Assembly: GCF_016026235.1 (NCBI RefSeq) | Contig: NZ_CP065613.1 | Source: Escherichia coli | GTDB taxonomy: Bacteria; Pseudomonadota; Gammaproteobacteria; Enterobacterales; Enterobacteriaceae | DNA: 64,000 nt | Reading direction: 5' to 3' (one strand) | Shown: positions 57,640 to 58,582 of the stretch, piece after piece | Numbering within the stretch: the stretch's first letter is position 1 | How the letters are laid out: every line of letters starts with the position of its first letter | Notes under the pieces: generated by a model | Told to the model about the DNA's origin: nothing | Databases searched by the model: none | The model's input: the letters and a program-made list of their open reading frames with translations, nothing else | Position numbers and translations under genes: made by a program

Positions 57640-57757
57640 TCATTAGTTTTTTATGATTTATCCCAATGTACTTCCCGATTAATATCGGGGAGTGCCTTAA
57701 TGGAAAAGGAGATGACTAAACCTTAATAAATACATCAGTACAGGTAATGACTCCAAC

Positions 57758-58261
57758 TTATTGATAGTGTTTTATGTTCAGATAATGCCCGATGACTTTG
57801 TCATGCAGCTCCACCGATTTTGAGAACGACAGCGACTTCCGTCCCAGCCGTGCCAGGTGCTGCCTCAGATTCAGGTTATGCCGCTCAATTCGCTGCGTAT
57901 ATCGCTTGCTGATTACGTGCAGCTTTCCCTTCAGGCGGGATTCATACAGCGGCCAGCCATCCGTCATCCATATCACCACGTCAAAGGGTGACAGCAGGCT
58001 CATAAGACGCCCCAGCGTCGCCATAGTGCGTTCACCGAATACGTGCGCAACAACCGTCTTCCGGAGACTGTCATACGCGTAAAACAGCCAGCGCTGGCGC
58101 GATTTAGCCCCGACATAGCCCCACTGTTCGTCCATTTCCGCGCAGACGATGACGTCACTGCCCGGCTGTATGCGCGAGGTTACCGACTGCGGCCTGAGTT
58201 TTTTAAGTGACGTAAAATCGTGTTGAGGCCAACGCCCATAATGCGGGCAGTTGCCCGGCAT
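57758..58261 (-). CDS. insB: IS1 transposase InsB
   Basis: 167-aa ORF matching recalled IS1 InsB. Confidence 0.9.
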
Positions 58262-58455
58262 CCAACGCCATTCATGGCCATATCAATGATTTTCTGGTGC
58301 GTACCGGGTTGAGAAGCGGTGTAAGTGAACTGCAGTTGCCATGTTTTACGGCAGTGAGAGCAGAGATAGCGCTGATGTCCGGCGGTGCTTTTGCCGTTAC
58401 GCACCACCCCGTCAGTAGCTGAACAGGAGGGACAGCTGATAGAAACAGAAGCCAC
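58180..58455 (-). CDS. insA: IS1 InsA (transposition inhibitor, N-terminal part of InsAB' fusion)
   Basis: 91-aa [42 protein letters not shown]...; A6C frameshift motif at 58189-58201. Confidence 0.9.
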
Positions 58456-58582
58456 TGGAGCACCTCAAAAACACCATCATACACTAAATCAGTAAGTTGG
58501 CAGCATCACCATCAGTACAATATCGCAACAATAATATATTTAAAAAAATTATATTATTCAACTTTATGGTGAGGATTACACA

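Follow-up and report, generated by a model that had tools for sequence, protein, structure and literature searches.

In the stretch of Escherichia coli DNA analysed here (contig NZ_CP065613.1; 64,000 nucleotides, hereafter the window), a copy of the insertion sequence IS1 lies between the kbaY and agaB genes of the aga/gam cluster. The cluster is present in its complete 13-gene form, not in the K-12 deletion form, and reads agaR, kbaZ-agaVWEFA, agaS-kbaY, IS1 and agaBCDI; the order agaS, kbaY, agaB, agaC, agaD, agaI is the same as in annotated genomes. An earlier reading of this DNA, made without database searches (below, the sequence-only reading), had named these last six genes, and the names hold, as all of them pass the NCBIfam equivalog or subfamily cut-offs over their full length. 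On the plus strand, kbaY (56779-57639; NF009375, 664.6 bits against a cut-off of 542) is intact upstream of IS1, and beyond IS1 follow agaB (58583-59059; NF007288), agaC (59098-59901; NF007289), agaD (59891-60682; NF007359) and agaI (60683-61438; NF007291). The kbaY stop codon ends at 57639 and the agaB ATG stands at 58583; the plus-strand spacer between them now runs from 57640 to 58582 and comprises 943 untranslated nt, while its empty form has 166 nt with 72% A+T. The distances of 104 and 73 bp given earlier from IS1 to the kbaY stop and to the agaB start, respectively, are right as coordinate differences and correspond to 103 and 72 intervening bases.

The element itself is a complete IS1 of the IS1A type, 768 bp long (57743-58510, minus strand), as seen from sequence reading, a repeat finder and a comparison with K-12. 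Its right terminal inverted repeat (IRR; 57743-57765, GGTAATGACTCCAACTTATTGAT, located with the repeat finder) points toward kbaY. The left terminal inverted repeat (IRL; 58488-58510, the reverse complement of GGTGATGCTGCCAACTTACTGAT), which carries the IS1 promoter region, points toward agaB. According to the repeat finder, the terminal arms are 23 nt each and 78% complementary, and the ends are the same as in K-12 IS1A. In the list of open reading frames (ORFs), insA (58180-58455, minus strand) encodes 91 aa from a GTG start and matches the NCBIfam models for the IS1 transposase N-terminus and zinc-binding domain; the insB’ frame (57758-58261, minus strand, 167 aa) is open. The A6C programmed -1 frameshift motif, AAAAAAC, is found at 58198-58204 on the minus strand (plus-strand GAGTTTTTTAAG at 58196-58207), and with this slippery motif, TTAAAAAAC, present, a -1 shift joins insA and insB’ into a stop-free InsAB’ of 232 aa. 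Along the NCBIfam IS1 transposase profile NF033558, InsA covers positions 1-81 and InsB’ positions 75-199, and the InsB’ match reaches 143.7 bits, above the cut-off of 100. The 768-bp IS1 with insA/insB on the minus strand and an A6C motif, as described in the sequence-only reading, is thus borne out by the sequence, the ORF list and the 232-aa fusion. A promoter scan also returned a minus-strand promoter-like CTGCCA-16-TATGAT (58503->58476) that is directed into insA, away from agaB.

The IS1-family characters that were examined are all found in this copy: it is about 768 bp long and has imperfect inverted repeats, about 23 bp each, starting with GGTRATG, overlapping insA and insB’ frames, the A6C motif and a target-site duplication (TSD) of 8-9 bp. 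K-12 IS1A and the window IS1 have 767 of 768 bases in common. The sole difference, at 58249 (A here, T in K-12), falls on a third codon position in insA and, in the free-standing insB’ ORF, turns codon 5 from Ser into Cys; this part of insB’ lies upstream of the shift site and is not used by InsAB’. The match to the IS1 of strain 2017.18.02CC (NZ_AP027844.1) is complete (768/768), and the window holds no second IS1 copy. In K-12, IS1 transposition is almost entirely due to the IS1A/IS1E consensus type (PMC12428005). The window IS1 is nearly canonical, with the sequence requirements for transposition all intact, and is apparently functional.

Target duplications of IS1 usually measure 8-9 bp (PMC5009759, PMC12428005). 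On re-inspection, the 9-mer ATCAGTACA was seen on both sides of the element, its left copy at 57734-57742 and its right copy at 58511-58519, just as the sequence-only reading had claimed for a perfect 9-bp duplication. The repeat match runs to 10 nt solely because C57733 is the same as the last IS1 base, C58510. The chance of a 9-mer match at both fixed positions is about 1.8e-5, flank composition considered. We also carried out the empty-site comparison that had been proposed earlier: once IS1 and one repeat were removed, a 400/400 one-piece match was obtained in many E. coli genomes. The kbaY-agaB site is uninterrupted in 5243 of 5426 complete E. coli genomes. The closest of the complete genomes, FDAARGOS_943, is 99.9% identical to the window across 24.7 kb upstream; its empty site shows a single ATCAGTACA without IS1, and it differs from the window minus IS1 by 4 mismatches and 1 gap in 11.7 kb of aga-yra DNA (99.96% identity).

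Synteny is kept on both sides of IS1. Together with the exact 9-bp duplication and the perfect reconstruction of the empty site, this upholds the simple transposition postulated before and excludes a product of recombination between IS1 copies. The uninterrupted site in FDAARGOS_943 and in most genomes, in turn, indicates that the transposition was real, simple and recent. Neither the exact left nor the exact right IS1 junction has a 100% one-piece match among the 5426 complete E. coli genomes. Judged from these comparisons, the insertion is a recent, lineage-specific simple transposition of IS1.

One might object that assembly errors arise most often at IS elements and that no other genome searched carries this junction, in which case IS1 would have been misplaced or a repeat collapsed during assembly, or the structure would have arisen by recombination between two IS1 copies. 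However, a misjoin or an inter-IS1 recombination would leave unmatched flanks, and both junctions here are base-perfect canonical IS1 tips with the same flanking 9-mer; removal of IS1 restores the sequence of many genomes with synteny intact. Moreover, five independent genomes with IS1 no more than 28 bp away (see below) make the position biologically plausible. We regard misassembly as very unlikely, and this whole group of explanations as hardly credible.

What the insertion might do depends on how agaBCDI is transcribed. Only three AgaR-controlled promoters, PR, PZ and PS, have been described for the aga/gam regulon (Hu et al. 2013, PMC3668189), and a ΔagaS mutation was shown genetically to be polar on agaBCD in E. 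coli C (PMC3668189). Both observations agree with the premise of the sequence-only reading that agaS-kbaY-agaBCDI is a single transcription unit. The role of agaBCD is limited to galactosamine uptake, while agaI is dispensable (PMC3668189). Since no separate promoter is known for agaBCDI, transcripts must traverse IS1 to reach it. The untranslated kbaY-agaB gap, 166 nt before the insertion, now measures 943 nt, and its transcribed strand has windows rich in C and poor in G; C-rich, G-poor untranslated RNA is the kind on which Rho acts, and IS1 is polar in either orientation via Rho-dependent termination. An intrinsic terminator between kbaY and agaB was considered and rejected: the hairpin at 57668-57695 lacks a U-tract, and scanning for terminators gave no match there. 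The sole plus-strand terminator-like match is a weak 5-bp stem within IS1 (58370-58384).

Such evidence induces us to propose the following scenario. An IS1A-type IS1 transposed into the 166-bp AT-rich spacer, duplicating ATCAGTACA. Transcripts that read agaBCDI from PagaS through agaS-kbaY would now have to cross 777 extra untranslated nt, with IS1 in antisense, and Rho-dependent termination inside IS1 would stop most of them, as in classical IS1 polarity. As an outcome, the galactosamine phosphotransferase system (PTS; AgaBCD) and AgaI would be lost or strongly reduced, with AgaS, KbaY and the N-acetylgalactosamine branch (kbaZ-agaVWEFA) unaffected. We thus predict that agaBCDI expression is strongly reduced and that the strain is Aga+ Gam- (positive for N-acetylgalactosamine, negative for galactosamine), which we consider probable. 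For annotation, this would mean a complete cluster in which agaBCD and agaI are probably silenced, and a strain to be scored Aga+ and probably Gam-.

The hairpin mentioned above also deserves a comment of its own. It is strong, consists of 12 bp (GTACTTCCCGAT-TAAT-ATCGGGGAGTGC), begins 29 nt past the kbaY stop and, lying upstream of IS1, was left undisturbed by the insertion. It could be an mRNA 3’-stabilising or processing element between agaS-kbaY and agaBCDI. On the other side of IS1, an AT-only near-palindrome (AATAATATATTT / AATTATATTATT; 58530-58558) with 12-nt arms, 92% complementary, ends 25 nt before the agaB start and could be a candidate binding site for a nucleoid protein. A scan of the window with Rfam gathering thresholds gave no match at or near the aga locus.

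The polar outcome would be averted if agaBCDI were served by a promoter downstream of, or created by, the insertion. An outward -35 box is a known feature of IS1 ends, which are able to form functional hybrid promoters (PMC8764528, PMC9330008). In the window, an outward -35-like hexamer, TTGGCA (58497-58502, plus strand), is indeed found in IRL, at a distance of 8 nt from the tip of IS1, and the 72 nt remaining before agaB are extremely AT-rich. It is therefore conceivable that the insertion is non-polar or even activating, with an IS1-flank hybrid or a cryptic promoter in these 72 nt driving the still intact agaBCDI independently of AgaR and PagaS. However, among the -10 candidates at spacers of 15-19 nt, none exceeds 3/6 matches to TATAAT (CAATAT, AATATC and TATCGC, with ATATCG and ATCGCA at 0/6), and the optimal 17-nt spacer gives a 0/6 match. 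None of the hexamers at 16-18 nt (AATATC, ATATCG and TATCGC) has the conserved final T, and the promoter scan of 57500-58700 returned no plus-strand promoter-like site. Activation in the literature has been reported only with a correctly placed -10 (PMC8764528). A hybrid promoter formed by IS1 and its flank is thus unlikely, and to a non-polar or activating insertion as a whole we would assign a small chance.

If agaBCDI had a native promoter in that part of the kbaY-agaB spacer which lies downstream of IS1, the insertion would likewise be phenotypically neutral. Such a promoter might be suspected from the length of the spacer, as 166 nt is unusually long within an operon, and from the hairpin and the palindrome flanking IS1, which could be regulatory. 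What speaks against it is the polarity of ΔagaS on agaBCD in E. coli C, where PR, PZ and PS are the only promoters known (PMC3668189), as well as the hairpin itself, which without a U-tract is no intrinsic terminator requiring a restart of transcription. The spacer also lacks both a plus-strand promoter-like match and AgaR boxes. The AgaR motif CTTTCGTTT was defined by eye rather than taken from a published matrix. Its exact copies are confined to the agaR/kbaZ region (50016, 50155 and 50202) and to the DNA upstream of agaS (55313 and 55549), and copies with one mismatch cluster beside them. The sequence-only reading had seen no AgaR-operator-like repeats between IS1 and agaB; in fact, the whole kbaY-agaB spacer is free of CTTTCGTTT boxes. 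We find a native promoter at this place very improbable and retain polarity as the preferred interpretation.

Besides its likely effect, the position of the insertion is of interest, as this region proved to be a recurrent IS1 target, a point absent from the sequence-only reading. In a whole-locus search, 281 genomes had IS1 near kbaY-agaB-agaC at positions other than that of the window. Placed in window or empty-site-equivalent coordinates by mapping the fetched loci, five independent junctions lie at four other positions, from 57722 to equivalent 57749, within 28 bp of the window’s site. Simple insertions are represented by CFSAN061771 (TSD GACTAAACC, 57714-57722) and by PT62 / LP5-1 (8-bp TSD CAATATCG, equivalent 57741-57748). 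The other three are accompanied by deletions: the ATCC 8739 record NZ_CP043852.1 has its left junction at 57722, as in CFSAN061771, with the right side deleted into yraJ, while UK_Dog_Liverpool (57741) and B1W1 (equivalent 57749) also have their right ends in yraJ. A further genome, LH13-b (NZ_CP100525.1), resembles PT62 in its right junction between IS1 and agaB and has no counterpart in the left-junction matches; either its left side was rearranged or it represents a separate event.

More IS1 junctions were found at the agaB start (58592, 58611, 58616 and 58628) and in agaC (59116-59124 and 59190-59198). Judged by the distances spanned by two-piece matches, IS1 occupies about 15 positions of the spacer and agaB in the same orientation as in the window and 6 in the opposite one; with the two agaC sites, this makes about 23 distinct positions between 57640 and 59200, in both orientations, among the 5426 complete genomes. 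Same-orientation IS1 within 590 bp, at about 15 positions, accounts for 30 genomes. When control spacers were searched in the identical way, 0 genomes had nearby IS1 at the agaR/kbaZ spacer and 0 at the agaA/agaS spacer, while the agaI/yraH spacer, with 25-31% GC, gave 115. In these 115 genomes, same-orientation IS1 lies no more than about 590 bp downstream of the agaI stop, at many offsets. The agaI-yraH region (61439-61838) is thus an even stronger IS1 landing zone than the kbaY-agaB stretch; the window has no IS1 there.

IS1 prefers AT-rich DNA and hops locally (PMC5009759). With agaB and the 5’ part of agaC being the most AT-rich coding stretch of the cluster, the 72% A+T spacer and the AT-rich agaB/agaC start fit both tendencies. 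By these counts, the spacer and the AT-rich agaB/agaC start form a hot spot, regional in extent, for IS1 insertion in E. coli, and the choice of the site was not random. A gapped pattern spanning the whole hot spot was matched by none of the metagenome contigs and none of the GTDB representative genomes.

Two further candidate determinants of site choice were examined and rejected. At 57722-57749 all insertions have the same orientation, but deletion derivatives inherit orientation, which leaves only three independent choices, and the bias is not significant; opposite-orientation IS1 copies are common in agaB. Integration host factor (IHF) binds an IS1 hot spot in pBR322. No match to the IHF-type WATCAANNNNTTR with up to one substitution was present in the spacer.

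Older reports describe homology between IS1 ends and IS1 targets. Here, the target TACATCAGTA (57731-57740) resembles the IRL-internal TAAATCAGTA (58485-58494) at 9 of 10 positions, a likeness that may be due to chance. Two clonal-looking groups, both mostly human clinical, were also evident among the genomes. One, represented by locus L001, has IS1 in agaC (TSD 59190-59198) and supplies most top matches of the whole-locus search; the other, of at least 29 genomes, carries an opposite-orientation IS1 in agaB, about 237 bp downstream of the window’s site, and this IS1 is divergent, with about 93% identity at its end.

In several strains IS1 copies border deletions of agaBCDI-yraHI, namely in UK_Dog_Liverpool, B1W1, SWYH.B349aT, NZ_CP043852.1, TOK-001 and 2017.18.02CC. 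Three genomes (loci L003, L005 and L010) have a common IS1-yraJ junction at 63330 and left ends at 57741, equivalent 57749 and 58611; other deletion right ends lie in yraI, at window positions 62676 and 62907. IS1 is able to produce adjacent deletions by intramolecular transposition (PMC9330008). A common yraJ junction with differing left ends is what one resident IS1 would leave after several adjacent deletions, for which the spacer would again have been the target. The segment from the kbaY stop to yraJ is thus a recurrent landing and deletion zone of IS1, which is relevant wherever aga/gam phenotypes or these genes are used as markers, and the compared loci are a natural, if small, set of cases showing how IS1 chooses targets and deletes adjacent DNA.

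A separate observation concerns NZ_CP043852.1, which is labelled ATCC 8739 and, with IS1 at 57722 and a deletion into yraJ, is without agaBCDI. The other ATCC 8739 records (NC_010468.1, NZ_CP022959.1 and NZ_CP033020.1) were not among the junction matches, and agaB mRNA has been measured in ATCC 8739 (PMC9628945). The discrepancy points to divergence of stocks or to mislabelling.

It is conceivable that recurrent IS1 insertions and deletions in unrelated lineages reflect selection for loss of the galactosamine PTS, beyond the preference of IS1 for AT-rich DNA. If so, the mannose-family IIC/IID membrane complex might, for example, be harmful because phage DNA, bacteriocins or contact-dependent toxins enter through it, or else there might be a toxic build-up of sugar phosphates. 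The window would then show convergent gene loss, which proceeds from insertion to adjacent deletion, at its earliest stage and while still reversible. Loss that was selected rather than mutationally biased, if demonstrated, would raise the interest of the locus to moderate. We see only a slim chance that selection of this kind is at work.

Overall, we consider it likely that the whole is best explained by an ordinary IS1 transposition upstream of agaB, within a regional hot spot, with a predicted polar effect on agaBCDI. Some considerations weigh against this conclusion. In published cases, the effect of IS1 upstream of genes on the downstream transcript has differed, with an increase, a decrease or no change (PMC8764528), and consensus scanning may have missed a weak hybrid, TTGGCA-15-CAATAT, or a cryptic promoter within the very AT-rich 72 nt that precede agaB. 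The intactness of agaB, agaC, agaD and agaI might also be held against polarity; at 99.96% identity to an empty-site relative, it is neutral and uninformative on expression. As for the hot spot, the counts are uncorrected for phylogeny and many of the counted genomes are clonal, and with such counts a target preference is inseparable from tolerance of, or selection for, loss of the galactosamine PTS.

The insertion site itself is previously unrecorded. Our literature search found no report of IS1 in the aga genes, the only paper to mention both agaB and IS1 being concerned with IS1 in manX, and the aga genes are not among the entries of the ST131 IS1 site tables. The element, its simple insertion and the predicted polarity are nonetheless of a known kind and leave the existing picture of IS1 and of the aga regulon as it was.

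Finally, some features outside the insertion site should be mentioned. In the window, agaA is an intact ORF of 384 aa (54107-55261), whereas in FDAARGOS_943 it is annotated as frameshifted and named nagA (locus L012, 2587-3719); the single gap between the window and FDAARGOS_943 may correspond to this frameshift. Rfam matches elsewhere in the window comprise rnpB, the RNase P RNA (41558-41934, minus strand), and naRNA4, derived from repetitive extragenic palindromic (REP) sequences (3837-3918 and 4038-4116, both minus strand).

Compared with known systems, the closest counterpart of the element is IS1A of K-12 MG1655 (NC_000913.3, 19796-20563), which has the same 768 bp, inverted repeats, insA/insB’ layout, A6C shift and 232-aa InsAB’. 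The window copy departs from it by the one substitution at 58249 and by its location, as the kbaY-agaB position is unoccupied in K-12. Strains CFSAN061771 and PT62/LP5-1 (spacer), together with XJ5.2, the VTB97432v group and A134_1EC (agaB/agaC), have IS1 of the same family in the same orientation and the same operon, with TSDs of 8-9 bp. Their target positions differ from that of the window, lying 20 bp upstream, 7 bp downstream or within agaB/agaC, and some of their IS1 copies are other variants, 95-99.9% identical to the window copy. Where IS1 is internal to agaB or agaC, it breaks the coding sequence directly, while the window IS1 would act by polarity.

The deletion strains have one IS1 end in the same spacer or at the agaB start, in two cases 1-7 bp from the window’s site. 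Unlike the window, which retains all of the genes, they have no matching duplication at IS1, their other end lies at yraI/yraJ, and 4-6 kb are gone. The classical polar IS1 insertions in operons are those in gal and lac, where distal expression is abolished via Rho-dependent termination. As in these cases, the window IS1 is located between the promoter-proximal and promoter-distal genes of one transcription unit; unlike them, it lies in an intercistronic spacer and not in a coding sequence, and its polarity is a prediction.

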